64,000 bases of DNA from Escherichia coli (lineage in GTDB: Bacteria; Pseudomonadota; Gammaproteobacteria; Enterobacterales; Enterobacteriaceae), in NCBI RefSeq assembly GCF_036507355.1, contig NZ_AP027877.1; one strand, written 5' to 3'. Positions 2,447 to 43,265 of this stretch are shown here, in pieces. Under the pieces are notes generated by a model. The model worked only from the letters and a program-made list of their open reading frames with translations, made no database searches and was not told the origin of the DNA. Numbering within the stretch: the first letter of the stretch is position 1; each line of letters begins with the position of its first letter. Position numbers and translations under genes: made by a program.

Positions 2447-2637
2447 TCCGCGTAGGAAAAAGTTTCCTAATCGGTAAATTCAACATATTGTTATTAACAA
2501 TGGGCAAAACCAATCAATAACGAGATTCCCTTCGGAATGTAATAAAAATGTGAAGTGTACTTCTTTTTTAAAATTTTTTATCCTAGCATTTGTTCTCAAA
2601 TTGATATTGAGCTTAAATATAACCAAGGAAAATGTAA

Positions 2638-3345
2638 ATGAATAACACATTACTTCCATCAATTAATATTCCCTGTACACTTTTCGAAACTATTAGTTTA
2701 TTTGATGATTATTCTGCTGATGATATGCAATATGGTGATATGGTAGAACAAGATTTTCTCTCACTCGGCCTAAGCGATATCTCAGCAAAAGTTGATCCTT
2801 ACAGACTTATTAAATACCATTTCCCTGGCCCAGGTTCTGTTAATGTTGTTTTTAGTGCCTCAAGTTCCGGAACAAAAATATCACAACGTGAATGCACTGA
2901 TATTTTATTTGCAGAAATGAAAGAACTAGCAAAAAATTTTTCCTTTTTTGGACAATATAAAACACTTATCGAAGATCTGATTGAACATTTTAGATATGGA
3001 AATGGCAGCAATTTTCATAGCCAACAATTAAATTTATCTTTTCATGAAAAGATAAATAAATATGGTTATAATAGTCCAATACGAATAATCAAAGAATGTA
3101 TCGAAAATGGCATTAATTCAACTCCCTCGACAGGATACCAACCTCTTATCCTGCAAAGCATTAAAACCAAATTACTTTCATCAAGACTAAATAAATTTAA
3201 TGACTTCGAGGACAGTTTTAATGGCTTAGGAATCAGTATTCATGATATTTCAGCTCAAAAAAATATCTCTTTTAAGCTTTCAAAAATACGCTATAGGGTG
3301 GAGTGCGACAATTCATTTTGTAGCACAGGACCACTTCGGTCTTGA
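2638..3345 (+). CDS. hypothetical protein, AT-rich cassette gene A; probably frameshifted, C-terminus may continue in +1 frame to 3487
   Basis: 235-aa ORF with AAGGA RBS ~8 nt upstream; ~30% GC; overlapping +1-frame ORF 3242..3487 ends in an ATGA overlap with gene B. Confidence 0.5.
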   Translation: MNNTLLPSINIPCTLFETISLFDDYSADDMQYGDMVEQDFLSLGLSDISAKVDPYRLIKYHFPGPGSVNVVFSASSSGTKISQRECTDILFAEMKELAKNFSFFGQYKTLIEDLIEHFRYGNGSNFHSQQLNLSFHEKINKYGYNSPIRIIKECIENGINSTPSTGYQPLILQSIKTKLLSSRLNKFNDFEDSFNGLGISIHDISAQKNISFKLSKIRYRVECDNSFCSTGPLRS

Positions 3346-3483
3346 TGTAACTGATATCAAAAACAAGACTTACAGCAAATATAGATTTTTTCGCATATGG
3401 TTCTTTTTACAACGGCATAAAGGCTTTGCTTTCAAACCTTTTTTCACCAATTTTAACACTATCGAAAGAATCGAAAATTATCT

Positions 3484-3975
3484 ATGAAAAGCAAACGCCA
3501 GAAAATTATATTATGTTTATTTCTTCTATGCTGTATCTATAATTTATGGACATTGCGTCCTGTACAGATTTTGTATACATACTCTGATGCTGGCAATTCA
3601 GTCTTTCTGGTCGTTGATCATCTGCCATGGACTGACAGCGATAAAATAAATTGGTATCTGAAGCATCAGAATGAAATTAAAAATCAACATCCCCTACCAG
3701 AAGGTAGTTGGCATACCTGGTATGTCATTGATATCGGTAATGGCTTCACTGACTATAAAAAATATATCGAAGGGCCGTATGAAGATCTCTACTGTTTCCC
3801 GACAATTAAGAGCAATGATAATTGCATCGTGAAAAATTACTTAATGGTTATTAATGAATACCCTTATCGTAACACTCATATTGGTATTAACGATTTTACT
3901 GAGTATCAATTAACACAAGAAAATAAAATAGAGCGAGTTTTCAATCCGCATGACTTTAAAAAAGACAATTTTTAG
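3484..3975 (+). CDS. small protein with N-terminal hydrophobic anchor/signal, cassette gene B
   Basis: 163-aa ORF, N-terminus KIILCLFLLCCIYNLW is hydrophobic; start overlaps upstream frame by ATGA; AT-rich. Confidence 0.55.
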   Translation: MKSKRQKIILCLFLLCCIYNLWTLRPVQILYTYSDAGNSVFLVVDHLPWTDSDKINWYLKHQNEIKNQHPLPEGSWHTWYVIDIGNGFTDYKKYIEGPYEDLYCFPTIKSNDNCIVKNYLMVINEYPYRNTHIGINDFTEYQLTQENKIERVFNPHDFKKDNF

Positions 3976-3980
3976 AAATA

Positions 3981-4010
3981 AGCCGGATAAAAAAATAGCT
4001 TTATCCGGCA
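3981..4010. repeat. REP-like palindromic hairpin (GCCGGATAAA...TTTATCCGGC) between cassette gene B and corA stop
   Basis: 10-bp inverted repeat seen directly; motif resembles E. coli REP units. Confidence 0.4.
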
Positions 4011-4016
4011 CTCATA

Positions 4017-4967
4017 TTACAACCAGTTCTTCCGCTTAAAGTACAGATACGGTGCCAGGCCCGCGAGGATCATAAAGATAATCGCGCCTGGGTAGCCGAA
4101 ACTCCACTTCAGTTCTGGCATAAACTCAAAGTTCATCCCGTAGCTGGAAGCAACCAGCGTTGGCGGCAGGAACACGACGGATACCACCGAGAAAATTTTG
4201 ATGATGCGGTTCTGCTCGATGTTGATAAAACCCATTGCCGCCTGCATCAGGAAGTTCACCTTCTGGAACAGGGATTCGTTATGCGGCAGCAGGGATTCGA
4301 TATCTCGCAGGATTTCACGCGCCTGCTCCAGTTGCCCACCCGGTAAGCGTGCTTTACGTACCAGGAAGTTGAGAGCGCGCTGGGTATCCATCAGACACAG
4401 GCGAACTTTCCAGCCGATATCTTCCAGTTCCGCCAGAGTGGAGAGCGCCTCGTCGTACTCATCGCCCTGATGCCCTTCCATAATCACCCGGCTCAATTGC
4501 TCCAGGTCGCTATAGATATTTTCAATTTCATCTGCCAACTGTTCGATTTTGGTTTCGAACAAATCCAGCAGCAACTCGTAGGCGTTACCGTCTACCATCG
4601 ACTGGCTACGGGCACGCATACGATATAGACGAAAAGCGGGCAGTTCACGCTCACGCAGAGTAAACAGACGACCATCACGGATGGTAAATGCCACAGTGGA
4701 GTTACCGGCGTGATCTTCCGCATCTTCAAAGAAGAAGAAGGAGTGAATATGCAGGCCGTCATCGTCTTCAAAGAAACGTGCCGATGCTTCGATGTCTTCC
4801 AGTTCCGGGCGGGTTGCCAGGCTCTGGCCAAGTTCAGATTGTACGCGCAGTCGCTCGTCGTCGTCCGGTTCGACAAGATCAATCCATACTGCATTTACAA
4901 GGGGTTGTGACTCTTCGACTTCCAGCCGGGTCAGTCGGTTATTTTCCAGTTGAAATGCGCTCAGCAT
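4017..4967 (-). CDS. corA: Mg2+/Co2+ transporter CorA
   Basis: ORF 4017..4982; native start [10 protein letters not shown] gives 316 aa; GMN motif and two C-terminal TM segments present. Confidence 0.95.
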
Positions 4968-5336
4968 GACCGGGACTCCCAATGCTTAAAATATCGGACA
5001 GTTCGGTGGGCACACAGAAACAAATTGGGTTTCAGACCATTAAACAGCCTGACTCAGCGCGACGGGAAAAATTGAGGTCGCTGACAACCGCTAAGGCTAT
5101 CAGCAAAAAGGGATAGCCTTAGGAGTTGATCCTGGATGACAGGATAGTGAGCCAGTATCTACTGGGTGTGTCCAAGGCGAATGTCCTCTTAGAGTGATCG
5201 TGCGCGCATGTTACGCCAGCAAAATTTTGCCGTCAACACGCAACAGAACACCACAGAACAATAGTTGAACTTCGCGCTTTTTGGTACTCGTCAAGGTCGC
5301 TAACAGGATAAAAAAATCCCACATCCAGGACCTATA

Positions 5337-12754: not shown

Positions 12755-12942
12755 TATGGATTGCCTGTAAAGTTCATCGCTTTCTGCTTTCTATCATCGC
12801 AGGAGAAGGCGTAAAAGCAAGCGTTTAGCGACTCTTTATGAAGTCTGAAAAGTGAGGAAATGCTGCGAGTATAACGCTTACTCGTGGGGATTTATGTTTT
12901 GCTGGTAGTTTCGTGATCGGCACCTCGCGCCAGGATGGCTTT

Positions 12943-14421
12943 ATGCACTATCGCAATGTGGTTTGTTTGTTGGCTTGTTCGTTGTTTTTATCGTCGGCAT
13001 GGGGATGTCGGCTTTCCGCACCTGAACATAATATTTACCAGAAACAGGGAAAAGGCGTGGTGTACCTGCGCCCTTATAAAGAAACAAATCTTTCTCTACC
13101 TGACGTGAATTACAAGAGTTTGCGTCGGTTACCCAATTTATTAATAGACCCGACAACACTAGACGAATGGGATAAAGAACCGCCTCAGACTGATTTGACA
13201 ACCGACTACCTCTATGAGGGCGCACAGGCCTGGTATCCTCATTATTCCTGGTATAGCGATGGTCGCAATATCCTCTACGCGGGTGAAGTTGTGCAAAACC
13301 CTCCCGGCACACCTCCCGTCGATGTCGCCTCGTTCAAGGCATGGGGTGATTTTGCTGCAGATAAACACAGTCTCTATTTTGAAGGCAAGCGCACCGATGA
13401 CAATGGTGGGAGAAATAGCTTAGATATCAAAACGCTGCATCAGGTGGAATTCCGGCCTCCCTGGGCTCCTGACTTACTGGGGCTGATATTACGTGACGCT
13501 AATTTCTTGTATATCAATGGGCATCGCCTCGCTGACCCCGAGAGTTTCCGTGTGCTGGCGCAGAAGTCCTGGGATCAGCGAGGAAAGTTTTCCACCACGT
13601 TTAACCCCTGCGTTGCCGTACCATTCGGCCCCTGGGATACCCTGGCTCGTACACGGACCAAAATCCTGATCAACGGCGAACAGCTTGATGCCGACCCGGA
13701 CACCTTTTCCGTCGTGCGCTGGATGCCCGGCTCACTCTTGACCTGGCGTGATAAAAACGGGCTACAGCGTAAAGTCCTCGACAAGGAAAATCTGGCGTGG
13801 GATGAGGATTTAACAAAGCACTGTCTGGATTTTTCTCTGCTGGAAAAGAAAGTGTTCTGGCGTCAGGGGCCTGACTGTAAACAGGAAGAATTACCGGGAC
13901 TCGATCCGGAACAGTTTCACCCCATCAGTGATGCTGTCGCACAGTATCAGGACTCGCTTTATACCATCATCGAAACAGAGTCTGGTGACCGCAAGCTGGA
14001 GATCGTGAAACTTGATGATCCCAATCTTATTATCAACAAACGTTTCAACGCCGGGAAACGCCACGGCTATTTACTTACGCGTGCCGAAGGGTGGCCATAC
14101 CATTCCGGTTTACACGTGTTTGAATCTGACGGACCGCTGATCTTACTGGATAACCGCTCTCCGGATGAACGCGAAGCCCATCTTAATGACCATCCCTTTT
14201 TGCGCAGATGGTATGCCCGCGATAACCGCTACGTTTACAGCTTTGATGGCGCGCAGCTCTGGCGATACCGCACCGCGGATCCGAAACAAGTTCGCTTAAT
14301 CTGGAAGGAACAACATTCGGGATATGGCTACGGGGTAAATTACAAAACGGGATATCTGGACGGAAAAATTACCGATGACGGCGAATTTATTCCTGCCCCG
14401 CGCAATGAGGCGACAAAATGA
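12943..14421 (+). CDS. secreted repeat protein, paralog A (DKNYY-like repeats); accessory
   Basis: ORF 12913..14421; ATG at 12943 with AGGA upstream; hydrophobic N-terminus; motifs DKHSLYF, DANFLYI, DNRYVYSF; strong similarity to downstream paralog. Confidence 0.6.
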   Translation: MHYRNVVCLLACSLFLSSAWGCRLSAPEHNIYQKQGKGVVYLRPYKETNLSLPDVNYKSLRRLPNLLIDPTTLDEWDKEPPQTDLTTDYLYEGAQAWYPHYSWYSDGRNILYAGEVVQNPPGTPPVDVASFKAWGDFAADKHSLYFEGKRTDDNGGRNSLDIKTLHQVEFRPPWAPDLLGLILRDANFLYINGHRLADPESFRVLAQKSWDQRGKFSTTFNPCVAVPFGPWDTLARTRTKILINGEQLDADPDTFSVVRWMPGSLLTWRDKNGLQRKVLDKENLAWDEDLTKHCLDFSLLEKKVFWRQGPDCKQEELPGLDPEQFHPISDAVAQYQDSLYTIIETESGDRKLEIVKLDDPNLIINKRFNAGKRHGYLLTRAEGWPYHSGLHVFESDGPLILLDNRSPDEREAHLNDHPFLRRWYARDNRYVYSFDGAQLWRYRTADPKQVRLIWKEQHSGYGYGVNYKTGYLDGKITDDGEFIPAPRNEATK

Positions 14422-15743
14422 ATGGTCAAATAATCACTGTTGCACTCATCCTGTTGGGGCACATATTTCTGACGCCTGCTGTACAGGCCATAGGGTTCGA
14501 CTATTACAATGATCACGGTGTTATGTCTTACGGTAAAGGTTATGGGGAGGATGAGAAAATCATTGCCCAATTTCCGAAGATGAACAGAGCCGATTTGCGC
14601 CTTGTGACAAATATATCCGGGGAGCGGGAGTTAGTGGAAGGCTATATACCCACCGATGAAATAAGCATAAAAAATGAGGAATACCACTGGGTGACAGACG
14701 GCCGCGTTATTCTCTGGCGTGGCAAAATCGTTAGCAATCCACCGGGAACACCCACTGTCGATATTGCCAGCTTTCAGGCTATGGGCCGCTTCGCGGTCGA
14801 TAAATATAGCCTCTATTTTGATGGACAGCGCACCGAAAGTAATAGCGGCGCGTCACGTGTTGATCTGGCGACACTAAAAGCTATCGAAGGTAACTCTACC
14901 ACGCTGGTGGATAGTAAAAATCTCTATTTGTCCGGTCGACGTCAGGGGAGCAGCAGTAATGTTACTGTATTAGAAAAAAGATGGTGGGGTATTAATCCAC
15001 GTCTTATGAGTGTAAACAGAAATTTGTATTCCAATGATCTGCTTATCCGCAGTGGGCAGAATATTTATTTAAATGCCGTTCACCTTACAGCGAATGCAGA
15101 CTCATTTGAGATAATTCGCTGGATATCTCATTCACTGCTGGTTTTTCGCGACAATAAGGGTCTGCATCGTTATCCCTTTGGGCAATTGTCTGGCAAAGCG
15201 ATACCCGTAGATGATGACGTCTCTTTTGAAGTAGGGGAAAGTCGCGTTCGCTGGCGTAAACAGCTCACGCCCGACCGTCAGTGGAGCAAGTGGATAGACC
15301 TACCAGGTATTGAACCTGAACAATTTCATCTGATTACTGGCAATATTGCGCAATATAAAGATCGGTTGTATGTAACAAAATTATCGACATTTGGTGAAGA
15401 CCAGCTTGAGATAATCCCGCTGGATACGCCAGACCTGGTCATTGATCACTCATTTAATAGCGGCAAACAGCATGCTTATTTTATCCGCCAATTACGGTCA
15501 AAGAGCGTGCAAATTATTCCAGTTAACGGTCCGCTAACTAAAAACGATCGCTTCGCTTATGACGATCGCAATGTTTATACATGGACCGATACAGAGGTAA
15601 GGATTACACCCTCCCCCTGCCCGGCGAAAACACGCGTCAGAGAAGAGAATGTGCGCGAACTTCACAACAGAGACATTATTATTCCGTTGACGGATGAATC
15701 ATGCCGTAACGCAGCCGCAGAGGTGCAAACTTTGAAGCCCTGA
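14418..15743 (+). CDS. secreted repeat protein, paralog B (DKNYY-like repeats); accessory
   Basis: 441-aa ORF; signal peptide ending AVQA; ATGA overlap with paralog A; shared blocks NPPGTP.VD.ASF and EPEQFH..IAQY.D.LY. Confidence 0.6.
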   Translation: MNGQIITVALILLGHIFLTPAVQAIGFDYYNDHGVMSYGKGYGEDEKIIAQFPKMNRADLRLVTNISGERELVEGYIPTDEISIKNEEYHWVTDGRVILWRGKIVSNPPGTPTVDIASFQAMGRFAVDKYSLYFDGQRTESNSGASRVDLATLKAIEGNSTTLVDSKNLYLSGRRQGSSSNVTVLEKRWWGINPRLMSVNRNLYSNDLLIRSGQNIYLNAVHLTANADSFEIIRWISHSLLVFRDNKGLHRYPFGQLSGKAIPVDDDVSFEVGESRVRWRKQLTPDRQWSKWIDLPGIEPEQFHLITGNIAQYKDRLYVTKLSTFGEDQLEIIPLDTPDLVIDHSFNSGKQHAYFIRQLRSKSVQIIPVNGPLTKNDRFAYDDRNVYTWTDTEVRITPSPCPAKTRVREENVRELHNRDIIIPLTDESCRNAAAEVQTLKP

Positions 15744-26822: not shown

Positions 26823-27891
26823 GCTGAATTTACAATCCAAGTGCAACAAAAAAAGAAGTACTCATCAACTAGAATATAATTTTGTTTCCACACAAAAACC
26901 ACTTCCAAATGATGAGTACTTCCTACCGACATCTTACAATAAACGAGCGAGAAAAGATAATGATTTTACTCGCACAGGGCAAAAAACAAGCAGAAATTGC
27001 CAAAGCACTGGGACGTAGCTCCAGCACCATTTCTCGCGAGCTGAAACGACACGCTCTAGAAAGCTACAGTGCAACGAACGCACAAAACAGCTATTTGAAG
27101 CATCGTCAAAATAGCAAAGCACAGCGCAAATTAGAGCAGCCTGAATATTTCAATTTGGTGCAAGAAAAGTTTCTGACAGAAAACTGGTCGCCCGAACAAA
27201 TCAGCGCACGATTAAAATTGGAAAAATCTGAATTATCCATTAGTTATTCAACCATTTATCGTGGTATTTATTCAGGGTTGTTTGATATAGGCGAACGCAA
27301 AGCCAGTCGCAAACTGCGCCACAAAGGCAAAACACGGCATACAAAAAATCATCATGAAAAACGTGGCAAAATTCAGATATCCAACCATTTGAACGACCGT
27401 CCCATTTCGGCGCAAAATCGCAGTCGCTTTGGACATTGGGAAGCCGATACCGTACTGGGTAAAGCGGGTGGAGCTTGTTTGCTGACGCTGACGGAACGCA
27501 AAAGTCGTTTTGAGTTGGTGAAGAAAATTCCTGCCAAAAAAGCCGAAGCAGTCCAAAAAGCCATGATTGAATTGCTGGATTCACATATATTGCGGTCAAT
27601 TACGCCAGACCGTGGTAAAGAATTTGCCCAACATCGTTTGGTAACAGAAGCACTGGGTGTAGAATTTTACTTCCCCGAGCCGCATCAACCGTGGACACGG
27701 GGAACGAATGAAAATACAAATGGGTTACTTCGTGAATACTTTCCGAAGCACCAAGACATCAATCAGTGGAGCGAAGTTGATATTCAACAGGTGATCAATA
27801 AACTGAATTTACGACCACGTAAATGTTTAGGTTGGAAAACACCTTATGAAGTTTACTTCAAAAAATCGTTGCACTTGGTTTGACAATTCAA
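26823..27891 (+). mobile_element. IS30-family insertion sequence (ISApl1-like), ~1.07 kb, imperfect ~24-bp terminal inverted repeats, 2-3 bp target duplication (GAG/AG)
   Basis: Left end GCTGAATTTACAATCCAAGTGCAAC; right end (reverse complement) TTGAATTGTCAAACCAAGTGCAAC; GAG flanks both ends; flanks rejoin into continuous aslB; ends +/-2 bp. Confidence 0.8.
26882..27883 (+). CDS. IS30-family DDE transposase
   Basis: 333-aa ORF with N-terminal HTH (LAQGKKQAEIAKALGRSSSTISRELKRH) and C-terminal DDE region (HWEADTV...TPDRGKEF...TRGTNENTNGLLREYFPK); 307 aa if started at the internal Met. Confidence 0.85.
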   Translation: MFPHKNHFQMMSTSYRHLTINEREKIMILLAQGKKQAEIAKALGRSSSTISRELKRHALESYSATNAQNSYLKHRQNSKAQRKLEQPEYFNLVQEKFLTENWSPEQISARLKLEKSELSISYSTIYRGIYSGLFDIGERKASRKLRHKGKTRHTKNHHEKRGKIQISNHLNDRPISAQNRSRFGHWEADTVLGKAGGACLLTLTERKSRFELVKKIPAKKAEAVQKAMIELLDSHILRSITPDRGKEFAQHRLVTEALGVEFYFPEPHQPWTRGTNENTNGLLREYFPKHQDINQWSEVDIQQVINKLNLRPRKCLGWKTPYEVYFKKSLHLV

Positions 27892-27894
27892 GAG

Positions 27895-27984
27895 ATAAAA
27901 ACAGTAGTCACAGTTCAGATTACAATCGGAACCGCTCGGTTTCGCCATCACATGAAAAGCACGCGTTGGAACCTGTTGCAGCAT
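27895..27984 (-). pseudogene. aslB: aslB 5' fragment (N-terminal ~30 codons with radical-SAM Cys triad) separated by the IS
   Basis: minus strand encodes MLQQVPTRAFHVMAKPSGSDCNLNCDYCFYL, then the IS end. Confidence 0.75.
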
Positions 27985-28094
27985 GGTCGCTCCTTGCCTG
28001 AAGTCATCCTTCAATACGTTAAGGGCGAAATCATACCGTGGGGCAATGAGTTATTACGGGCGTTTATTGCGAAGGGAGGGTGACGAAATGCACA

Positions 28095-28128
28095 GAAAAC
28101 AAAAAACCCCGCCGAAGCGGGGTTCAAA
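28095..28128 (-). terminator. rho-independent terminator of the argX-hisR-leuT-proM tRNA operon
   Basis: minus strand CCCCGCTTCGGCGGGG hairpin followed by TTTTTTGTTTT. Confidence 0.6.
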
Positions 28129-28130
28129 AT

Positions 28131-28207
28131 TGGTCGGCGAGAGAGGATTCGAACCTCCGACCCACTGGTCCCAAACCAGTTGCGCTACCAAGCTGCGCTA
28201 CTCGCCG
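28131..28207 (-). tRNA. proM: tRNA-Pro (anticodon UGG)
   Basis: cloverleaf read on minus strand: CGGCGAGTAGCGCAGC...anticodon loop TTTGGGA...CCA end. Confidence 0.9.
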
Positions 28208-28249
28208 AAATACTGCTTTTTGAATTTTTAGTTCAATTCTTTAAAGTCG

Positions 28250-28336
28250 TGGTGCGAGGGGGGGGACTTGAACCCCCACGTCCGTAAGGACACTAACACC
28301 TGAAGCTAGCGCGTCTACCAATTCCGCCACCTTCGC
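28250..28336 (-). tRNA. leuT: tRNA-Leu (anticodon CAG), long variable arm
   Basis: minus strand GCGAAGGTGGCGGAATTGGTAGAC...anticodon CAG...CACCA. Confidence 0.9.
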
Positions 28337-28355
28337 ATTGTCACAACTTCTAATA

Positions 28356-28433
28356 ATGGGGTGGCTAATGGGATTCGAACCCACGACAACTGGAATCACA
28401 ATCCAGGGCTCTACCAACTGAGCTATAGCCACC
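28356..28433 (-). tRNA. hisR: tRNA-His (anticodon GUG)
   Basis: minus strand GGTGGCTATAGCTCAGTTGGTAGAGC...anticodon GTG...CCA. Confidence 0.9.
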
Positions 28434-28490
28434 ACTACAAATCTTGTTACGCGGTATTACTACCACCGCAGCTCAAGCGCCGGGACTAAA

Positions 28491-28567
<77 letters not shown>

Positions 28568-28669
28568 TTAGCGCCGTTGCGGGGGTGGATAATACGGACT
28601 TCCCACCCCTCTGTCTAGTCCCTTTTTAAATAAATTGCGCGTTTGGTTACGGTTTGTGCGTTTTGTTGC

Positions 28670-30055
28670 TTATTCCTCCAGTTTATGCGCTTTCCCGTGG
28701 CGATTAAGGCCAAAAACTTTATAAATCGCCGTCACCGCCAGCATAAAGATGATGCCAACAAACAGCGACATACGCGTATCTTCATTAAAGTACATGCCGA
28801 TCAAAACGCAAATCAGGAATGCCATTGTTACGTAGTTGGCCCACGGGAACAGGATTGAGCGGAACGGATGGCTGGCAATCGCCGCTTTATGTGCACGCCG
28901 AAAACGCAGCTGGCTTATCAATATCACAAACCATGGCACCATCCCCGGAAGCACGCTGGCACTGTAGACGTAGACAAACACACGCTGCGGATTGGGAATG
29001 ATGTAGTTCAGGCATGAGCCAATTAGCAGAATAGCAATAGATACTGCCACACCCGCAACTGGTACGCCGTGACGGGAAACTTTCGCCATCGCCGCCGGTA
29101 ACTGACGGTTTTTCGCCAGTGCGTAGAGCATACGTCCGCAACTGTACATGCCGCTGTTACAGCCAGAGAGCGCAGCCGTCAGCACCACAAAGTTGATAAT
29201 GCCCGCCGCTGCGGTAATACCGATTTTGGCAAAAGTCAGTACGAACGGGCTGCCGTTGCTGCCTATTTCATTCCACGGGAAGATGGTGACGATAACGAAA
29301 ATCGCGCCTACGTAGAAAATCAGGATCCGCCACAGCACCTTGCCTACGGCACTGCGCAGCGTCACCTGCGGATTCTTCGCTTCACCGGCAGTAATGCCAA
29401 TCAGCTCCACGCCCTGGTAGGACGCCACCACAATACACAGCGCGGTCAGGAACCCTTTCCAGCCACCCGCAAAGAAACCGCCATGCTCTGTGAGATTGCT
29501 AAAACCAATCGACTGCCCGCCATTGCCAAAGCCAAAGAAAATCACGCCCAGGCCAATGACAATCATCACGATAATCGTGGTGACTTTGATCATCGCGAAC
29601 CAGAACTCGATTTCGCCGTACAACCGCACCGCCGCCAGATTCGCCAACGCCACCAGCGCCACTGCGATCAATGCGGGTATCCACTGCGCCATCTCCGGGA
29701 ACCAGAACTGGACATAAACGCCAATGGCGGTGATTTCAGAGATCCCCACCGCCATCCACATAAACCAGTAAGACCAGGCGGTGAGATAGCCAAAGAACGG
29801 GCTCATATAACGATGCGCATAAACGGCGAACGAACCGGTAACCGGTTCGAGGAACAACATTTCGCCCATTGAACGCATGATGAAAAAGACGAACAGCCCG
29901 GCGATGATATAGGCCAACAATACGGATGGCCCGGCCCATTTCAGGGTACTGGCGGCCCCCATAAACAGGCCGACGCCAATGGTGCCCCCCAGGGCGATGA
30001 GTTCGATATGTCGAGCTTCCAGCCCACGCTGTAGCTCTGGTTTGTTATCTGCCAT
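28670..30055 (-). CDS. yifK: APC-family amino acid permease YifK
   Basis: 461-aa polytopic ORF; expected position upstream of the tRNA operon. Confidence 0.9.
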
Positions 30056-30245
30056 AAATCCTCGTGTTGTGTTTGCATGCTTTCCGGTGTTACCGGTTAT
30101 CGTTATGGGTACATCGAGTGTTGCGAATGTTTTCGTAATTCAGGAGAAATGGCAAATAAAGCATTAAAAATTTGAATGCTTTGTGTAATAAAAAAGCAGA
30201 CAGGCGACGGAGTGACCACTCCGTCGCTTTACAAAGAGAGGAAAA

Positions 30246-30986
30246 TCAGAGGTTGCCGGTGTAGTGCCAGCGTAAATAACGCAGCAAACGAAGCTGACGC
30301 TTAATGCGGCTCGGCTGCGAAAGCAGGCGGTAGAGCCACTCCAGTCCCAGCGTTTGCCAGATTTTCGGTGCGCGTTTTACGTGACCGGTGAAAACATCGT
30401 AAGTCCCGCCAACGCCCATATACAGCGCATCTGGATGCACCAGACGGCAGTCGCGCATGAAGATCTCCTGCTTTGGCGATCCCATCGCAACGGTGACGAT
30501 TTGCGCTCCGCTGGCATGAATGCGTTCAAACAGCGCCTGACGCTGCTCGGGTTTAAAATAACCATCCTGACTGCCAACGATATTCACATTCCATTGGTTG
30601 CGCAGTTTAGCTTCAGTTTGCGCCAGCACTTCAGGTTTACCGCCCACAAGAAATACCGGCGTCCCTTCTTTGCCTGCGCGCGCCATCAGCTCTTCCCAGA
30701 GATCGGCACCGGCAACGCGGGAAACCTGCGCCTGCGGGTACTTTTTACGTACTGAACGTACAACGCTGATGCCATCCGCATATTTAAATTCGGCAGCGTT
30801 AATTAACTCCCTGACCTCGGCGTTATCTTCAATGGTCAGCATTTTTTCAGCATTAATGGCAACCAGCGTTCCCTGCTTAAGCTGCCCGTCAGCAAACAGA
30901 TAATCGAGGGCGTGCTGCATATCACGCCAACCAATCAACTGTAAGCCACGCAGCGTATAGGTCGGTGCCGTGGTGTTGTTATTCAT
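30246..30986 (-). CDS. wecG: UDP-N-acetyl-D-mannosaminuronic acid transferase WecG (RffM)
   Basis: 246-aa ORF at the distal end of the ECA cluster. Confidence 0.9.
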
Positions 30987-30988
30987 TG

Positions 30989-32341
30989 TTATCCTTCAAC
31001 CTGCGTCCGGAGCGATGATTTTGTACGTTTATGAATGAGTCCGGCGCTTTCAAAAAGCCAGTACAACAGTTTTGCGATCATCAGACATGCGCCGAAGACC
31101 ACGATAAAAAAGACTACGCGTGAGACAAACGAATCCAGCCCTTCACGTGCCAGCACGATCATATTGAAGATCGCCCCAAAGCAGAAACTGTGCAATATCG
31201 CAGCCTTATAGCGATTAGTCTCGCGGTTGCCCAGCTCATACAGCCAGTCGAACCATTTGATGATCAGTCCAACCACAATCGCCCCGAGCGGGATGAACAA
31301 CGCGCCGCCCATCACCACCAGTGAGCCTATAAGCGTAGGCGAGATCGCCAGTCCGGAGTGGTTATTCAGCACTTCCCAGGTAAAGTAGTTGGCTGAGTTC
31401 AGCACCATACTCGGGCGACCCGGCCACAGCCAGGAAGGGATAAAGACATAGAAATCGCGGACAATTGGAGCCAGGCCCTGGAAGTCGATGTTGTCGTAGT
31501 TCTGCAACAGCAACGCCAGATTCTCCCACGGCGAGAAGGTGTCGCGAGTGAGATAGAGAAACGTATAGAACGCTTCATCGCCGCTCACATTCATTCCATA
31601 GCGTTTTAGCGCCAGCCAGAACATGCCAACAATCCCCAGCACGCCCGCCGCCGCCAGCATCCACAACGAAATCCAGCCGCGAATAATGCCAATAAACAGG
31701 AAGATAGCGAATGCGATGATGATATTGGCGCGAGTGCCGCCGACAATCATATAAGTCAGCAAGCCAAAGGCGACCGTGCTGACGAGGAAAAACAGCCACG
31801 CTTTGCTGTCCTGGCGCAGAAAATAGACCACCAGCATCGCCGGGATGAAAAAGTAAAAGAAGCGTTTTAACGCCACGCCGGAGACTTCACTGGAAAAGAT
31901 CTGACTGTAGGAGTTAAGCCGGAACAGCAAAAAGCCGTTGTGCATGAAGAAGATGCCGACGCTTACCAGCGCGATACCCATCAGGATCACCCACATAAGA
32001 TTGGTCTCCACGCGGTTCATGGTAAACAGCGGACGGCGCGGTACATCAGCAACGCGTTTGCGTAGGCGGGTTTTGTAGGTGACATAGTAAACCGCGTAGA
32101 AGCAGCCCGCAGAAAGCAACGCCTGCAACAAGATTTCTGGCGGCGCGACACCAACATCAAAGCGAAATACCAGCACGCTGGTCAGCGGGAAGCCGAAGAA
32201 AAAGGTGAGCAAAAACAGCAATGAAAAGAAGACATTGAAGTTAAAGCGCACACGGCGAAACTCAAACCAGGTCAGCGTGGCAATAAACAGCGTGCAGAGC
32301 AGCCAGACCACAAACAGGCCACTGAATTGCAGCAGACTCAT
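30989..32341 (-). CDS. wzyE: ECA polymerase WzyE
   Basis: 450-aa polytopic membrane ORF. Confidence 0.9.
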
Positions 32342-33417
32342 GCGACCTCCCCGGCGGCAATCGCCAACGCCCGCTGCCAGCCTTGTAGATAGTTAGGGCT
32401 AAAGAAGGCAATGGTGTTTTTATCCACCGACGCCAACTGGCGCTGCGCTTCACGCACAATATCCTCGTTGAGATCGTCGGTAGTAAACAGCACCGGCAAA
32501 TGCTGTTCCGTCATATCCTGCCAGAACGGATTTTCCCGGTTAAGCACACAAGGAATGCCCGCCTGAATCAGTAAGCACAGCGTACCAATGCCCTGCTGGC
32601 GGGCAAAAATAAAGTAACCGAGATCGCACTGACGAAGTAGCGCCAGATAGGCGTCAAATTCCAGTTTTTCGCTCAGAACTTGCAGATTTTCTTCGCTGAA
32701 TAACTCCAGCCCCGCCTGACGAACTTCCTCAATGTACGCTTCGTTATTAGTCGGATATCCCATCGGCACCACCACTTTTACCGTATCGCCAAATTGCTGA
32801 TGAACGGCACGTAAGGCGGCGACATGCTCATTGCTGCGGTCGCCGGAGTTCCCCACCAGAATGGTCATTTTCCCTTCACGTTGCCGATCGTTCGCCATCG
32901 TATTGAGAGAAGGGTCCATCCGCGTCGGGAAGTACAGCAGTTCGCCCCGCACCTTTGGATGCGTTTTGGCAAAAAAGCTCAAATCACCGCGGGTGGCAAA
33001 TACACAGCCGACTCGCTTTTGCGCCAGGCGACGTAGCGGGTAAAAAAGCTTATATCTCAAGCCACTGGAAAGCTCATACAGATCTGCCCCCCAGATATGC
33101 CAGAAAAACTGGCGGGACTTAATGCCACCACTCAGCAAAGCCAGCCACAGTTTGGGATTGAACTGACCGTGGAGGAAAAAACGCTGCTGACGGTTAGCTT
33201 TTGCTTTCGCGATGACCGCTTCCGCCAGCGATTTTTTCCCAGGGAAAAATTGCACAGAAAGCGCCGGACAGCTATCACTTAAGCCGTCGTCCTTGCCAAC
33301 AACCATAAACTCGCGCGCGTGCTCGCTCGTCGCGGCCAGCACGTCATTGAAAAACCGCAAAACGGTTCGGTTATGGTGAGGGATATCCGATCCCAGTACG
33401 TGAATCAGTACAGTCAT
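32338..33417 (-). CDS. wecF: TDP-Fuc4NAc:lipid II Fuc4NAc transferase WecF
   Basis: 359-aa ORF, overlapping stop/start with neighbours. Confidence 0.9.
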
Positions 33418-34664
33418 GCCCGCCTACGCCAGAGTAAAAACACGCCACAACAAAGAGAAAAATAGACGATATAGGTTGCCATATAGGCCTGCGCCGCGCC
33501 CAGTGCACCATGCGCAGGGATTAGCCAGTGGGCAAATACCATCAATAAAGTGAACTGGCTGACTTCCGCCAGAATATAAAACCGCAATGACGCTTTGGCG
33601 ATCACCAGATAACCAAAGACATAAGCGCCCACTTTTAACACATCCCCCACTAACTGCCAGGCAAAGAGATCGCGCATAGCGGTAAATTTATTCGACAACA
33701 GCAGCCAGATAGCAAAATCACGCAGCAACCAGACGGTAAAACTCGCCGCCGCCACTGCCGGTAAGACGAATTTCAGCGATTTAACCACTTCCCGGGTGAT
33801 ATCGCGCTTTTCCGTTAGCCGCGACAACGTGGGCAGCAAATATACGCTGAACGATGCCGTAATAAATTGCAGGTAGGCATCGGAAATACTGCTCACCCCT
33901 TGCCAGATCCCCACTTCATCCCAGCTATACTGCGCCGCCAGCAGTTTACGCATCATGATGTAAGCAACAGGCAAGGTCACCGACGTAATCAACGCCATGA
34001 GCGTAAATTTGCTCAACTGCCCTGCCAGACCGTTATCCCAGCTGGGTTTCAGATAGCTTAACGGGATGACACCACGCTTGATCAACATGATGGCGGCAGG
34101 GATTACCACCAGCGCGGGAATCAGCGCCAGACCCAGCAACGCCCCTTCATAACCGCCCAAACGGTAACTGACGTAGTACGCGAGAACGCCAATCAAGCTG
34201 CCGACAATCAGCGATAACGCATTACCTGCGGCATCGCGAAAGCCTTTCATCAGCGCCAGTAACAGGTTGCCCCAGGCGATCCCCATTTGCACCAGCGCCA
34301 CTAAACGCACCAGCCCCTGATAGTCGGTATTACCAAACAATCCCTGGCTGATTGGCGCAGCTGCCAGCACAAAAACCAGCGCCATCAGCGTAGAGAAGCC
34401 AAGTACCATCGCTGATGAAGTGCCGACCACGCGGCGCAGCTGTTGGGGATTATCATGGTACTGGGCAACGTATTTGGTTACACCGTTAAAGATGCCAGCC
34501 CCGGCAAGCACGCCGAGCACGGTAATCAACTGGCGGAAATTTGCCGCCAGCCCAAGCCCCGCCGGACCAAATGACACCGCCAGCAACTTACCGACCAGTA
34601 ACCCGGCACCAATCTTGACCAGTGTACTGGCCGCCGTCCACAAGGACGCTTTTGCCAACGACAT
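33414..34664 (-). CDS. wzxE: ECA lipid III flippase WzxE
   Basis: 416-aa polytopic ORF. Confidence 0.9.
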
Positions 34665-34665
34665 A

Positions 34666-35796
34666 TCAGGAGAAGTAGTTCAACAAAGTCGCAATTACCG
34701 TACGCTGATTGACGGGCGACAGGTTGTAGAACAGCGGCAGGCGCAGCAGGCGCTCGCTCTCTTTGGTGGTGTAGCGATCTTCACCGTGGAACTCACCAAA
34801 GCGTTCCCCCGCAGGGCAACCGTGCAGCGGAATGTAATGAAACACCGCCATGATTTCCGCTTCTTTCAGAAAGTTAATCAACGCGCTCCGGTCATCAATA
34901 TCCCGCAGTTTAATGTAAAACATATGCGCGTTCTGCAAGCAGCCATCGGGAATCGACGGCAGCTCGATACGCCCGGCTTTCGCCAGAGGTGCTAACGCAT
35001 CGTAGTAGTTTTGCCACAGCGCCAGACGTTGCTGGTTGATACGATCCGCTGCTTCCAGTTGCGCCCACAGGTACGCAGCTTGCAGATCGGACATCAAATA
35101 GCTGGAGCCGATATCGCGCCAGGTATATTTATCGACCTGACCACGGAAGAACTGGCTGCGGTTAGTGCCCTTTTCACGGATGATCTCGGCTCGTTCGATT
35201 AACGCTTTATCGTTAATCAGCGTCGCGCCGCCTTCACCACCCGCCGTGTAGTTTTTGGTTTCATGGAAGCTAAAGCAGCCAATATGACCAATGGTTCCCA
35301 GTGCACGCCCTTTGTAAGTGGACATCACGCCCTGAGCGGCATCTTCTACCACAAACAGATTATGCTTTTTCGCCAACGCCATAATGGTCTCCATTTCGCA
35401 GGCCACACCCGCGTAATGGACCGGCACGATAACGCGCGTTTTGTCGGTGATCGCCGCTTCAATCAGCGTTTCGTCGATGTTCATGGTGTCCGGGCGAACA
35501 TCCACAAAGACGATTTTCGCGCCACGCAGCACAAAGGCATTGGCGGTGGAGACAAAGGTGTAGCTCGGCATGATCACTTCATCGCCAGGCTGGATATCGA
35601 GCAGCAGCGCCGCCATCTCCAGCGAAGCGGTGCAGGACGGCGTCAGTAACACTTTGGCGCTGCCAAAACGTTGCTCCAGCCACTGCTGGCAGCGACGGGT
35701 AAAACCGCCATCGCCACACAGTTTGCCGCTACCCATTGCCGACTGCATATAGTCGAGTTCGGTTCCCACCACCGGCGGTGCGTTAAATGGAATCAT
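34666..35796 (-). CDS. wecE: dTDP-4-oxo-6-deoxy-D-glucose transaminase WecE (RffA)
   Basis: 376-aa DegT/aminotransferase-like ORF. Confidence 0.9.
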   Translation of the reverse strand: MIPFNAPPVVGTELDYMQSAMGSGKLCGDGGFTRRCQQWLEQRFGSAKVLLTPSCTASLEMAALLLDIQPGDEVIMPSYTFVSTANAFVLRGAKIVFVDVRPDTMNIDETLIEAAITDKTRVIVPVHYAGVACEMETIMALAKKHNLFVVEDAAQGVMSTYKGRALGTIGHIGCFSFHETKNYTAGGEGGATLINDKALIERAEIIREKGTNRSQFFRGQVDKYTWRDIGSSYLMSDLQAAYLWAQLEAADRINQQRLALWQNYYDALAPLAKAGRIELPSIPDGCLQNAHMFYIKLRDIDDRSALINFLKEAEIMAVFHYIPLHGCPAGERFGEFHGEDRYTTKESERLLRLPLFYNLSPVNQRTVIATLLNYFS

Positions 35797-35800
35797 GTGA

Positions 35801-36475
35801 TCACCTGTATAACCAGTACGCGGTGCTTTCTACATTCGCACCACTTTGTATGTATCGTTTAAGCGCGGCGGTGTTGCCCATTTGGGTCGCCACCCGCAAA
35901 GTTGTTTTACCGCGAGCATACGCCCAGTTTAGCGCCGTTTGCATCAGCTCAGCACCTGCACCGCGTCCAGCCAGCAGGCCAATTCGCGCATCTGTCGCAT
36001 TGAGTTCCCGTAAAGAGACATAACCGCGAATATCGCCGGACGCCGCACGTAAAATCAGACATTGATGATCAAAGGTGCCGCGCACGGCATTTTCAATCCA
36101 CTGTGCATAAAAGCGACTGCTGGCGTCAGGCGCATACCACGGCGCACGAAAACGGCTTTGCGCAAATGCGGCGCTGGCTAACTGACGTAATGCGGGAATA
36201 TCGGTCTCTTGTGCCACTACAGCACCGCTATCACTGACATTGTTCACGGGTAGCGCCAAATCAATTTCACCTTCTACCAGGGAGAATCCCAGCTGTTGCA
36301 GGGCATCCAGTTCACCCGTATTTGATGCCGCAATTTTGGCCTGCACCCGTGACCACGGCGCTAACGCGTCTGGCGTCAGGAGCGGTGCTTCAGACGTAAT
36401 GCGCACGATGGCGCTGTTAACACCAAAGAAGGCGTTTTCCCAGGTTAGTGGCTCAATACTGGCGCGGACGGGCAC
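35801..36475 (-). CDS. wecD: dTDP-fucosamine acetyltransferase WecD (RffC)
   Basis: 224-aa ORF; 5' end overlaps rffH so true start may be internal. Confidence 0.85.
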
Positions 36476-37334
36476 GAAGTAACTCCAGCAGATATTGGCC
36501 GTAGCCAGTTTTCGCTAATGAACTGGCAGCACGCTTCACACCCTCGTCATCGAGCCAGCCGTTACGCCAGGCGATCTCTTCCAGGCAGGCAATCTTAAAG
36601 CCCTGGCGTTTTTCCACCGTCTGTACAAAGGTGCTGGCTTCAATCAGGCTGTCGTGAGTGCCAGTGTCCAGCCAGGCAAATCCGCGCCCGAGCAGTTCAA
36701 CGGTCAGGTTGCCCGCCTCGAGGTACATCTGGTTGATGGAGGTAATCTCCAGTTCACCACGCTCCGACGGCTTCACCTGCTTTGCGTACTCCACGACTTT
36801 ACTGTCGTAGAAATAAAGCCCGGTCACCGCCCAGTTTGACTTCGGCTGTTTTGGCTTTTCTTCCAGCGAGATAGCGCGGAAATTGTCGTCAAACTCCACC
36901 ACGCCAAAGCGTTCCGGGTCCATCACCTGATAGCCAAAAACCGTCGCCCCTTCCGTGCGCGCCGCAACATGACGCAGCTTCGGACTGAAGCCCTGACCGA
37001 AGAAGATGTTATCGCCCAGCACCAGACAAGAAGGTTCACCATTAAGGAAGGTTTCACCGATGATAAAGGCCTGCGCCAGACCGTCCGGGCTGGGCTGTTC
37101 GGCATATTCCAGCTGGATACCGAACTCACTACCATCGCCCAGCAGGCGCTGGAAATAACCTTTATCTTCCGGCGTAGTGATGATGAGAATTTCGCGGATA
37201 CCGGCCAGCATCAGCACCGACAGCGGATAGTAAATCATTGGCTTATCGTAAATCGGCAATAGTTGCTTCGATACGCCGCGCGTAATCGGATGCAATCGGG
37301 TACCGGAACCGCCCGCCAGGATAATACCTTTCAT
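36453..37334 (-). CDS. rffH: glucose-1-phosphate thymidylyltransferase RffH
   Basis: 293-aa ORF with N-terminal GGSGTRL motif. Confidence 0.9.
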
Positions 37335-37352
37335 GTTTGCCTCCGCTGAAAA

Positions 37353-38420
37353 TTAGCCTTTCAGACCTAAACGCTCGCCCTGATAGCTGCCGTCCTGCAC
37401 CTGCTTCCACCAGCTTTCATTAGCCAGATACCACTGCACCGTTTTACGCATTCCACTTTCAAAGGTTTCCTGCGGCAGCCAGCCAAGTTCATGGGCAATT
37501 TTCGAAGCATCAATGGCATAACGCAGATCATGCCCCGGACGGTCAGCGACAAAGGTGATCAGGTCATGATAGTGCGCCACGCCGTGCGGCTTGTTCGGAG
37601 CCAGTTCTTCCAGCAGCTCGCAAATAGTTTCCACAACATCGAGATTCTTACGCTCGTTGTGACCACCAATATTATAGGTTTCACCGACTTTCCCGGTGGT
37701 CGCCACGCAATACAGCGCGCGGGCATGATCTTCCACATACAGCCAGTCACGGATTTGCTGCCCGTTGCCATATACCGGCAGCGATTTACCCGCCAGCGCG
37801 TTGAGGATCATCAGCGGGATCAGTTTTTCCGGAAAGTGGTAAGGGCCGTAGTTATTCGAGCAGTTGGTGATAAGCGTCGGCAGACCATAGGTCCGCAGCC
37901 AGGCGCGCACCAGATGGTCGCTGCTGGCTTTTGACGCGGAATAAGGGCTGCTCGGCGCATACGGCGTGGTTTCGGTGAAGAAATCATCCGTCGAGTGCAG
38001 GTCACCATATACTTCGTCAGTGGAGATATGATGAAAACGGAACGCTGATTTTTTATCTTCCGTTAGCGCATTCCAGTAAGCCCGCGCCGCTTCAAGCAAT
38101 GTATAAGTCCCGACAATGTTGGTTTCAATAAACGCTGCCGGGCCGTCAATAGAACGGTCAACATGGCTTTCGGCTGCCAGATGCATGACACAGTCTGGCT
38201 GATGCTCAGTGAATACGCGTGCCAGTTCTGCCCGATCGCAGATATCAACTTTCTCAAAGGCAAAGCGCTCGCTTTGCGCGACCGGTGCCAGCGACATCAG
38301 GTTTCCGGCGTAGGTCAGTTTATCGACCACTACCACCGCGTCGCTCGTTTCGTTGATGATATAACGCACCAGCGCCGAGCCAATAAACCCGGCACCACCT
38401 GTTATCAGAATTTTTCTCAT
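37353..38420 (-). CDS. rffG: dTDP-glucose 4,6-dehydratase RffG
   Basis: 355-aa ORF with Rossmann GGAGFIGS motif. Confidence 0.9.
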
Positions 38421-39682
38421 CAGCGCCAGACTCCTTTGGCATCGACGACATACTGCTGATGGACATTGTCGCCATTGATAACTTTGAACTGACTATGATC
38501 GACCAGCATCACCAGCACGTCTGCCGTTGCCAGCGCCTCGTCAAGCTGCGCCAGAGTACAAAGCCCGGTCAGTTTTTTCGGCAACTGGTGGATGTTAGGC
38601 TCAACAACCAGAGTTTCGCCGCTATGCCACTGGGCGATCAGTTCAGCGATTTCCATCGCCGGGCTTTCGCGCAGGTCATCAATATTCGGTTTAAACGCCA
38701 GACCAAAGCAGGCGATTTTCAGTTCACTGGCGCGTTTATCGGTAGCCGCCAGGCAATCAGCCACCGCCGCTTTCACCTGATCGATAACCCAGAACGGTTT
38801 GTGATCGTTCACTTCGCGCGCGGTACGGATAAGCCGCGCCTGCTGGGGGTTCTGTGCCACGATAAACCACGGATCAACAGCAATGCAGTGACCGCCCACG
38901 CCAGGGCCAGGCTGAAGAATATTAACGCGAGGGTGACGATTCGCCAGGCGAATCAGTTCCCAGACGTTAATCCCCTGATCGGCACAAATCAGCGACAATT
39001 CATTAGCAAAAGCGATATTCACATCGCGGAAGCTGTTTTCGGTGAGCTTACACATTTCCGCCGTCCGCGAGTTAGTGACGACACACTCACCTTCGAGGAA
39101 AATTTTGTACAGTTCGCTGGCGCGGGCCGAACAAACCGGCGTCATACCACCAATCACGCGATCGTTTTTAATCAGCTCGACCATAACCTGGCCCGGTAAC
39201 ACGCGTTCCGGGCAGTAAGCAATGTTGACGTCCGCCTGCTCGCCCACCTGCTGTGGGAAAGTGAGATCCGGACGCATCTCTGCTAACCATTCTGCCATCT
39301 TCTCGGTTGACCCCACCGGCGAGGTGGATTCAAGGATCACCAGCGCGCCTTTTTTCAGCACTGGCGCAATGGAGCGAGCAGCCGATTCAACGTAGGTCAT
39401 ATCTGGCTCATGATCGCCTTTAAACGGCGTGGGTACAGCAATCAGCCAGGCATCCGCTTCAACTGGCGTCGTGCTCGCTCGTAAAAAACCGCCTTCTACG
39501 GCAGTTTTTACTACGCTCGCCAAATCAGGCTCGACGATATGGATTTCGCCACGATTGATGGTATCAACCGCGTGTTGGTTGATATCGACACCAATCACCT
39601 GTTTTTGCCGTGAGGCAAACGCTGCTGCTGTAGGCAGCCCGATGTAACCCAGTCCGATAACAGAAATGGTCGCAAAACTCAT
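38420..39682 (-). CDS. wecC: UDP-N-acetyl-D-mannosamine dehydrogenase WecC
   Basis: 420-aa ORF with N-terminal GLGYIGLP dinucleotide-binding motif. Confidence 0.9.
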
Positions 39683-40809
39683 AGTGATATCCGATTATTT
39701 TTTAACGCTTCCAGAATGCGAGAGCATGCCTGACCATCACCATACGGGTTATGGGCGCGGCTCATAGTTTGATATTCGTTTTCGTCTTTTAAAAGACGTG
39801 TCACTTCCTCGACAATTCGCTGCTTATCCGTGCCTACCAGACGCACCGTACCCGCCGTCACCGCTTCCGGACGCTCAGTGGTATCGCGCATCACCAGCAC
39901 CGGTTTCCCCAGCGAAGGCGCTTCTTCCTGAATGCCGCCTGAGTCGGTCAAAATCAGCCAGGCGTGGTTCATCAGCCAGACAAACGGTAAATACTCCTGG
40001 GGATCGATCAGAATGACATTTTTCACATGCCCCAGAATGCGATTGACCGGCTCTCTGACGTTCGGGTTGAGATGCACCGGATAGACAATCTGGATATCCT
40101 GGTGCGTGGTGGCGATGTCTGCCAGCGCGTGGCAGATTTCTTCAAAGCCACGACCGAAACTCTCACGCCTATGACCGGTCACCAGAATTATCTTTTTATC
40201 GGGGTCGATAAACGGGTAATTTGCCGCCAGTTCTGAACGCAGCGTGTCGCTGCTCATCACCTGGTCACGCACCCATAACAATGCATCAATGACTGTATTA
40301 CCGGTAATGAAGATTCGGCTATCCGCAACGTTTTCACGCAGCAAGTTTTGCCGGGAAGTTTCGGTTGGAGAGAAATGATACATCGCCAGATGCCCGGTCA
40401 ATGTACGGTTAGCCTCTTCCGGCCACGGCGAATAGAGATCGCCCGTGCGTAAACCAGCCTCAACGTGACCAACAGGAATACGCTGATAAAACGCCGCCAG
40501 GCTGGTTGCCAGCGTCGTCGTTGTGTCGCCGTGAACCAGCACGACGTCTGGTTTGAACTCGGCAAGAATAGGTTTTAGCCCTTCCAGAATCCGACAGGTT
40601 ATCTCTGTCAGGCCCTGTCCTGGCTGCATTATGTTGAGATCGTAGTCAGGTACAATGGAAAAGAGTTTCAGCACCTGATCGAGCATCTCCCGATGCTGCG
40701 CAGTGACGCAAACTTTAGCCTCAAAAAAAGGATCTTTTGCCAACGCATGCACCAACGGAGCCATCTTGATGGCTTCCGGGCGCGTACCAAATACAGTCAG
40801 TACTTTCAC
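39679..40809 (-). CDS. wecB: UDP-N-acetylglucosamine 2-epimerase WecB
   Basis: ORF 39679..40851; native start (GTG) at [20 protein letters not shown] gives 376 aa. Confidence 0.9.
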
Positions 40810-40864
40810 ATCGATTCTCTTCGAATAAGCGGCGAGCGCCTTTGCGCTCACCGCAGCAGTGTAG

Positions 40865-41911: not shown

Positions 41912-41922
41912 CACATCCTCAT

Positions 41923-43026: not shown

Positions 43027-43211
43027 AATGCATGCTCTCAGAGAAAATTATTAGCAGAAGTATAACCACGAAGACCTTTATTCAGAAGGGAAAGTCCGTT
43101 CCGAACCCACCAGCCCTGTGCAAAAATTAACCATTTGATATGCAAATTGCATAACATGCCAGCAAATTCCAGGAATTTTCCTAACATCGCCAGCGCGGCA
43201 TTAAGATTACA

Positions 43212-43250: not shown

Positions 43251-43265
43251 TGGCATAAGACAAAT

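Follow-up and report, generated by a model that had tools for sequence, protein, structure and literature searches.

A one-base insertion splits a DUF3289/YPO3983 gene beside an intact DUF943 gene at the corA locus of Escherichia coli

In the Escherichia coli genome analysed here (GCF_036507355.1, contig NZ_AP027877.1) an open reading frame downstream of yigF, gene A, is overlapped at its 3′ end by a second frame shifted by +1. The window, the whole 64,000-nucleotide stretch of this contig that was analysed, raises the question whether these are two genes or one, and, if one, whether the split is a mutation, an error in the record or a device for switching or recoding. Gene A runs from an ATG at 2638 to a TGA at 3343–3345 and encodes 235 amino acids. 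The +1 frame is open from 3230, directly after a TAG (3227–3229); its first ATG is at 3242, it shares 104 nt (3242–3345) with gene A, and it ends with the TGA at 3485–3487. This last stop overlaps the start codon of the next gene, gene B, in the sequence ATGA (3484–3487). Between the stop of gene A and the start of gene B there are 138 nt (3346–3483). The recorded products of gene A, the +1 ORF and gene B are BED24473.1, BED24474.1 and BED24475.1, respectively (locus tags VEE46_42410 to 42430).

An initial annotation, made from the letters of the DNA, had described gene A overlapped by a +1 ORF ending at 3487 and an ATGA overlap coupling this ORF to gene B, and both are present in the sequence as described. 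Its other features were also real, but three values had to be corrected: the gap of about 140 nt is 138 nt, the homopolymer placed at about 3255–3262 is an A7 run at 3257–3263 (the string CAAAAAAAT occupies 3256–3264), and the fused product, estimated at about 283 aa, has 282 residues. The features of the locus are collected in Table 1.

Table 1. Features of the corA-linked cassette in the window
Feature	Coordinates	Strand	Evidence or remark
Left repeat copy, duplicated 3′ fragment of corA	2305–2456	−	Left edge of cassette; RefSeq annotates a partial CorA pseudogene at the equivalent place
Whole DUF3289/YPO3983 gene (putative toxin), frameshifted pseudogene	2638–3487	+	850 nt here, 849 nt when intact
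Translated ORF	2638–3345	+	235 aa: 208 native residues and a 27-residue out-of-frame tail, NISFKLSKIRYRVECDNSFCSTGPLRS
A7 homopolymer, site of the +1 insertion	3257–3263	+	Alignments; ancestral A6 read CAA AAA ATA (Gln-Lys-Ile)
Premature TGA stop in the shifted frame	3343–3345	+	Read from the sequence
Out-of-frame remnant, +1 frame including stop	3264–3487	+	Native residues 209–282; Pfam profile positions 199–270
Gene B, intact DUF943 gene (putative immunity), 163 aa	3484–3975	+	Pfam DUF943; ATG overlaps the ancestral stop of the DUF3289 gene
Right repeat copy, 3′ end of functional corA (4017–4982)	4012–4163	−	Repeat search

One gene in two reading frames

The Pfam profile DUF3289 (PF11692, cut-off 25 bits) matched gene A over positions 2–200 of 272 (E = 1.7e-52, 179 bits) and the +1 ORF over positions 199–270 (E = 8.8e-26, 91 bits). 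The complete domain is not found in one frame here; it is split at about profile position 200, and since the two matches meet at this point the junction falls at the A-tract. Such a split of one profile over two frames is far beyond chance. With the NCBIfam model TIGR03034 (YPO3983 family, cut-off 156 bits) the truncated product covered positions 1–215 of 274 and scored 298 bits, and removal of one A extended the match to positions 1–274 and raised the score to 433 bits. The sequence matches thus exceed the curated cut-offs of both collections, and the frameshifted gene is a pseudogene member of the DUF3289/YPO3983 family.

The frames were then compared with orthologues. In O145 RM9872, BL21, EDL933 and 18AR0366, RefSeq annotates a single CDS of 849 nt and 282 aa, whose stop codon overlaps the DUF943 gene. 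When the four intact genes were aligned base by base with the window, the extra A in the tract was the sole indel of the gene (A7 in the window, A6 in the orthologues). The tract is A6 (CAA AAA ATA) also in the allele of SF-173, which is 88% identical, and because it was kept even there A6 must be the ancestral length. When one A was deleted from the window sequence, the predicted product became identical to a protein of four other E. coli contigs, annotated there as an intact member of the YPO3983/DUF3289 family. We also looked for orthologues that end at the position of the 3343–3345 stop and are followed by a separate conserved small ORF; the orthologues continue through this position in a single frame. 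The proposals that the frameshift lies at or near the A-tract, where the orthologue alignment shows the frames to fuse, and that the +1 frame is the original C-terminus are borne out by these comparisons. A single DUF3289/YPO3983 gene is divided between gene A and the +1 ORF that overlaps it.

The cassette at corA and the predicted effect of the frameshift

The gene order in the window is yigI, rarD, yigG, yigF, a 3′ fragment of corA, gene A, gene B, corA, yigE, uvrD. Genes A and B make up a putative toxin-immunity cassette of 1.7 kb at the 3′ end of corA, with a GC content of 32% against 51.5% for the window. Two copies of a 152-nt direct repeat, 94% identical to each other and corresponding to the corA 3′ end, flank the cassette (2457–4011). 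ZF8-1 has the empty site, without the cassette, whereas about half of the complete E. coli genomes (2,757 of 5,426) carry it. Predicted promoters and terminators were no more numerous in the cassette than in shuffled sequence. In SF-173 the divergent (88%) cassette directly follows rarD, and the annotation shows neither yigG nor yigF nor a corA fragment in between. Breaks inside the DUF3289 gene at recurring positions are seen in many draft E. coli assemblies, perhaps because of a repeated segment or a paralogue, and hundreds of ‘partial’ DUF3289 fragments of 38–153 aa lie at the ends of contigs of about 33 kb or 58 kb.

The DUF3289 gene is one of three adjacent accessory genes that are disrupted in this strain, the others being yigG and yigF. 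In yigG (1496–1876) a T7-to-T6 change (T-run at 1799–1804) shifts the frame, which ends at 1813 and encodes 105 aa instead of 126. Because independent drafts of the same lineage have this lesion as well, it is genuine and predates the frameshift in gene A; yigG of BL21 has a different lesion, an internal stop. In yigF (DUF2628, 1889–2269) Trp63 is replaced by a stop codon (2075–2077), which is shared by the near-clonal relatives described below and reduces the gene call to 62 aa. Further away, between lptM and cyaY, there is a variable two-gene insert (12913–15743) encoding a DKNYY-family protein and a 441-aa hypothetical protein. The latter was found on only seven contigs, and the DKNYY-family gene is split in a relative from Logan (SRR31122001) by a G-to-A change at window position 13250.

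What the cassette encodes can be suggested by analogy. The DUF3289 domain of T6EC1, a PAAR fusion from a type VI secretion system (T6SS) operon of Yersinia pseudotuberculosis, is toxic in the periplasm of E. coli, where it rounds the cells; it is neutralised by the product of the downstream gene, a membrane-anchored periplasmic DUF943 protein, and its fold resembles the colicin M family (PMC11148199). In Aeromonas jandaei, a standalone DUF3289 protein encoded at an orphan locus was shown to be a genuine effector that kills in a T6SS-dependent manner, and its immunity gene lies downstream (PMC12135965). In a Klebsiella survey the DUF3289-DUF943 linkage was seen 780 times. An earlier preprint from the same line of work as the Yersinia study had assigned the reverse roles, a toxic DUF943 and a non-toxic DUF3289 adaptor (10.1101/2021.10.07.463556). 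This assignment, made in 2021, was overturned by the Yersinia paper of 2024 (PMC11148199) and the Aeromonas genetics, DUF3289 toxicity being dependent on periplasmic targeting; annotations following the roles of the preprint may persist.

The repaired protein was modelled with AlphaFold2 from a 36-sequence alignment of diverse DUF3289 homologues (pLDDT 90.4, pTM 0.86), and the fold of the model matches a solved DUF3289 structure. In a Foldseek search the top matches outside the family were to the colicin M family, and these were weak (E = 0.02–0.07). A regular-expression search did not find the colicin M catalytic signature DxYDx5HR in the repaired protein, and the conserved motif of the DUF3289 family is its own, QDHFGLDxxD. 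Because the signature is absent, we use ‘colicin M-like’ for a resemblance, not for membership. No PAAR, VgrG, Hcp or other T6SS gene was linked or fused to the gene, which encodes a standalone protein beside yigF, the corA fragment and corA. A literature search found no paper on PDB entries 9jdi, 9jg8 and 9jg9, and for BtpeA, the effector of 9jdi, it yielded a single mention in passing. From the characterized relatives we consider it probable that the repaired gene would encode a standalone, colicin M-like antibacterial toxin acting in the periplasm and belonging to the type VI secretion effector class. That the corA-linked protein would be delivered by a type VI system is an assumption made on the same analogy.

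Gene B matched Pfam DUF943 over positions 1–150 of 151 (E = 3.4e-27). Its product has an N-terminal hydrophobic membrane anchor and occurs in identical form on at least 17 contigs. The gene lies directly downstream of the DUF3289 gene in the same orientation and overlaps it by the ATGA, an arrangement which, together with the Yersinia precedent, makes gene B the probable source of the cognate membrane-anchored immunity protein. The ATG of gene B has no convincing Shine-Dalgarno sequence. Because ribosomes would now terminate 138 nt upstream and the coupling through the ATGA is lost, expression of gene B may be lowered. BL21 carries an intact DUF3289-DUF943 pair at corA (NZ_CP170101.1, 3140–4476). 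The same strain was the host in which T6EC1 toxicity was demonstrated (PMC11148199), and its sensitivity to the Yersinia toxin suggests that immunity by DUF943 is allele-specific or poorly expressed.

In the window only the first 208 residues are read in the native frame; 27 codons of the shifted frame follow before the stop, so that residues 209–282 are lost. In the 36-sequence family alignment all eight invariant columns (H232, F233, G234, D239, W254, L257, Q258 and P267) and most of the near-invariant ones lie past residue 208, and the out-of-frame remnant holds the conserved core QDHFGLDxxD...FRIWFxLQ...KPF. The three long core β-strands of the model (206–216, 220–233 and 268–281) are lost with this segment, which is also the only part of the protein whose sequence could be aligned with 9jdi and 9jg8, the solved structures of DUF3289. 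The lesion removes the most conserved third of the protein. Since the lost segment carries the invariant residues and the core strands, the frameshifted toxin is very probably inactive, as judged from the alignment and the model.

Origin of the extra base

Near-clonal relatives were located through the exact gene B protein. Three independent draft assemblies (GCA_016660925.1, GCA_047852605.1 and GCA_021425525.1) are identical to the window over 3.4–14 kb save for the extra A, and a fourth (GCA_905398585.1) differs over 5.5 kb by the extra A and one SNP. All four have A6, and the 282-aa protein is intact in the three whose contigs cover the gene completely. Those with sufficient upstream sequence also have the yigG frameshift and the yigF nonsense codon, and all four carry every ‘window-specific’ SNP of gene A that falls within their contigs. 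The extra A is derived and private to this record, and because the relatives that share the other variants have A6 the insertion must be very recent. The five SNPs of gene A (four non-synonymous and one synonymous) had been considered as decay following inactivation; this was rejected, as relatives with an intact gene carry the same SNPs.

The longest comparison was made with GCA_016660925.1 and covered 42.3 kb (positions 1–26,822 and 27,892–43,417). Besides the extra A at 3257, the window differed over this length by one IS30-family insertion and by five substitutions, of which the one at 18641 is synonymous in cyaA. The inserted element has 1,069 bp (26823–27891) and an ORF for a 333-aa transposase with HTH_38 and rve domains, and it lies at the 5′ end of aslB, which encodes the anaerobic sulfatase maturase. 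It is absent from ZF8-1 and GCA_016660925.1, in which aslB is intact (411 aa), and is a second private disruption in this strain.

A one-base change in the length of a homopolymer of 6–7 nt is a classic consensus error of long-read sequencing, and the strain may truly have A6 and an intact toxin gene. Several observations fit such an artefact. The extra base is known from one assembly record only, it is the sole difference from three independent drafts over the lengths given above, and the exact 235-aa product is recorded on just one contig (BED24473.1) among about 15 billion proteins, whereas the intact allele of the lineage is on four. Moreover, the record is absent from the set of RefSeq complete genomes that we searched, in which the best identity was 99.3%. 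The quality of the rest of the assembly argues against an error. About 65 other homopolymer runs of at least 6 nt, including more than 10 of 7–8 nt, agree exactly with GCA_016660925.1 over the 42 kb, and the remaining differences from this relative, being substitutions and an IS insertion, suggest that the two have truly diverged and that the assembly is well polished. In comparison with the more distant ZF8-1, 45 of 47 homopolymer runs of this length class agree, and the two that differ do so also in the relatives and are therefore real. The yigG homopolymer frameshift had hinted at a generally error-prone assembly; this was rejected because the yigG and yigF lesions are present in independent drafts and no other homopolymer differs. 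Finally, A7 occurs at the same tract in an unrelated haplotype, XYEH3934, which indicates that the site can slip, although the XYEH3934 record may also be in error. The agreement of the homopolymers and the true divergence from the relatives favour a true mutation, and we regard a real, private, inactivating mutation as the probable origin of the extra A; an error confined to this record is the less likely alternative.

If the mutation is real, the A6 run would have gained one A by replication slippage, giving the A7 at 3257–3263; translation would leave the native frame after residue 208 and meet a stop 27 codons on, inactivating the toxin, and the DUF943 immunity would be kept while the toxin was lost. 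The strain would then appear to retain immunity as an ‘immunity-only’ genotype.

Two other disrupted alleles of the same cassette were found. XYEH3934 (NZ_CP110978.1) has the same A6-to-A7 change and, 124 nt downstream, a T6-to-T5 deletion (window equivalent 3381–3386). The two indels restore the length of 849 nt but not the frame, as a TGA stop between them comes first, and the gene is flagged as ‘frameshifted’ by the RefSeq pipeline. These indels are either successive events of decay or errors in that assembly. In XH989 (NZ_CP102679.1) an IS1 stands in place of the 5′ portion of the DUF3289 gene. Both resemble the window in having the same cassette with a disrupted toxin gene, and the DUF943 gene is intact in all three. 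As XYEH3934 and XH989 are on SNP haplotypes different from that of the window, the events are independent.

The initial annotation had left it open whether the gene is inactivated or a slip-strand, phase-variable locus. Inactivation is supported by the results above. In a phase-variable contingency locus, slipped-strand mispairing in the A-tract would toggle the toxin at a high rate, with immunity remaining on. The position of the homopolymer within the coding sequence would suit such a switch, A7 arose at least twice on different haplotypes (the window and XYEH3934), and the loss of the toxin by other routes with immunity kept suggests that an off state may be tolerated or favoured. The distribution of tract lengths speaks against it. 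Lengths were counted with synthetic queries of 97–99 nt, with which only an exact match reaches the band of at least 99%; 45-nt queries with 28-mer seeds spanning the tract were not used, because the DUST filter of BLAST would mask A7. Complete genomes with this allele group number about 1,800, and of these only one other, XYEH3934, had A7 and none had A5. On the commonest haplotype neither A7 (99-nt query) nor A5 (97-nt query) had an exact match in any of 1,801 genomes, and on the XYEH haplotype A7 was limited to XYEH3934 itself. A 201-nt query with the haplotype of the window had no match above 99.0% among the complete genomes, and only XYEH3934 spanned its full length; A7 was not found on the window/O145 haplotype in the set. 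All four near-clonal relatives have A6, as do essentially all of the roughly 1,800 genomes, so that the phase-variable part of the earlier claim was not supported. Known contingency loci with high switching rates have longer tracts, typically of at least 8 nt, than the 6–7-nt run of this gene. The phase-variable genes of Neisseria, Haemophilus and Campylobacter are similar in having a mononucleotide run in the coding sequence, whose change in length toggles the frame, but here the tract is short and essentially fixed at A6, and no on/off polymorphism was seen among the population and the close relatives. We consider phase variation highly improbable.

Programmed recoding, by which a +1 ribosomal frameshift or transcriptional slippage on A7 would regularly restore the full-length toxin, is the least credible of the readings considered. 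In its favour, an A7 run can in principle allow slippage, and the frame beyond it is open throughout and carries no damage. On the other hand, A6 keeps the gene in a single frame in the orthologues examined, which encode 282 aa, and in the near-clonal relatives, which shows that the split lacks conservation, and a −1 slip on A_AAA_AAT would meet a TAA (3273–3275) after three codons and bring no rescue. A further point against recoding is that runs of about 9 or more are required for transcriptional slippage to be efficient in E. coli. Even taken together, phase variation and recoding are very unlikely.

The A6-to-A7 change on two unrelated haplotypes and the IS1 knockout with the same outcome could also be read as signs of a recurrent slippage hotspot, in which the A6 run would serve as a selected low-frequency off-switch and lineages would become ‘immunity-only cheaters’ keeping DUF943. 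A still weaker extension of this reading is that small amounts of full-length toxin might escape through occasional transcriptional slippage on A7. We think it very doubtful that the tract has this role. The lesion is an ordinary recent knockout of an already known kind, or possibly a sequencing slip, and not a genetic switch.

Relation to known effector-immunity systems

In the annotation, the entries VEE46_42410 and VEE46_42420, two ‘hypothetical proteins’, should be joined into a single toxin pseudogene of the DUF3289/YPO3983 family, disrupted by a frameshift and lying beside an intact DUF943 immunity gene. The frameshift itself opens no new question, and the same lesion had already been flagged in XYEH3934. 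If the predicted roles hold, it offers a small, cleanly dated case of the loss of an interbacterial toxin with retention of immunity, as is expected from toxin-immunity theory, and it draws attention to a little-studied orphan effector-immunity cassette which resides at corA in about half of the complete E. coli genomes.

The closest characterized system is the T6EC1-T6IC1 pair of Y. pseudotuberculosis IP32881, which consists of the same two Pfam families in the same order (PMC11148199). T6IC1 and the product of gene B are alike in being DUF943 proteins that are anchored in the membrane at the N-terminus and have their body in the periplasm, the periplasmic location being predicted in the case of gene B. 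The Yersinia toxin differs in being a PAAR fusion encoded in a T6SS operon, whereas the gene described here is a standalone, frameshifted orphan beside corA. In organization the cassette is similar to the effector locus of A. jandaei DSM 7311 (WP_042032936.1, PMC12135965), where a standalone orphan DUF3289 gene is followed by a small immunity gene. The Aeromonas effector gene is intact, while the one in the window is truncated at residue 208, and the Aeromonas immunity protein is a 95-aa three-helix membrane protein instead of a DUF943 protein.

A more distant relative is the Bacteroides fragilis T6SS effector-immunity complex formed by the C-terminal domain of BtpeA and BtpiA (PDB 9jdi, also 9jg8/9jg9). 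Identity is only about 20–22%, and BtpeA differs in being a 608-aa multidomain, spike-associated protein of Bacteroidota. Next after the DUF3289 structures come, as weak matches, the folds of the colicin M family, with colicin M (3da4/2xtq), PaeM (4g76), pectocin M1 (8jc1) and syringacin M (4fzm), which shares with DUF3289 a proposed periplasmic activity on the cell-wall precursor lipid II.
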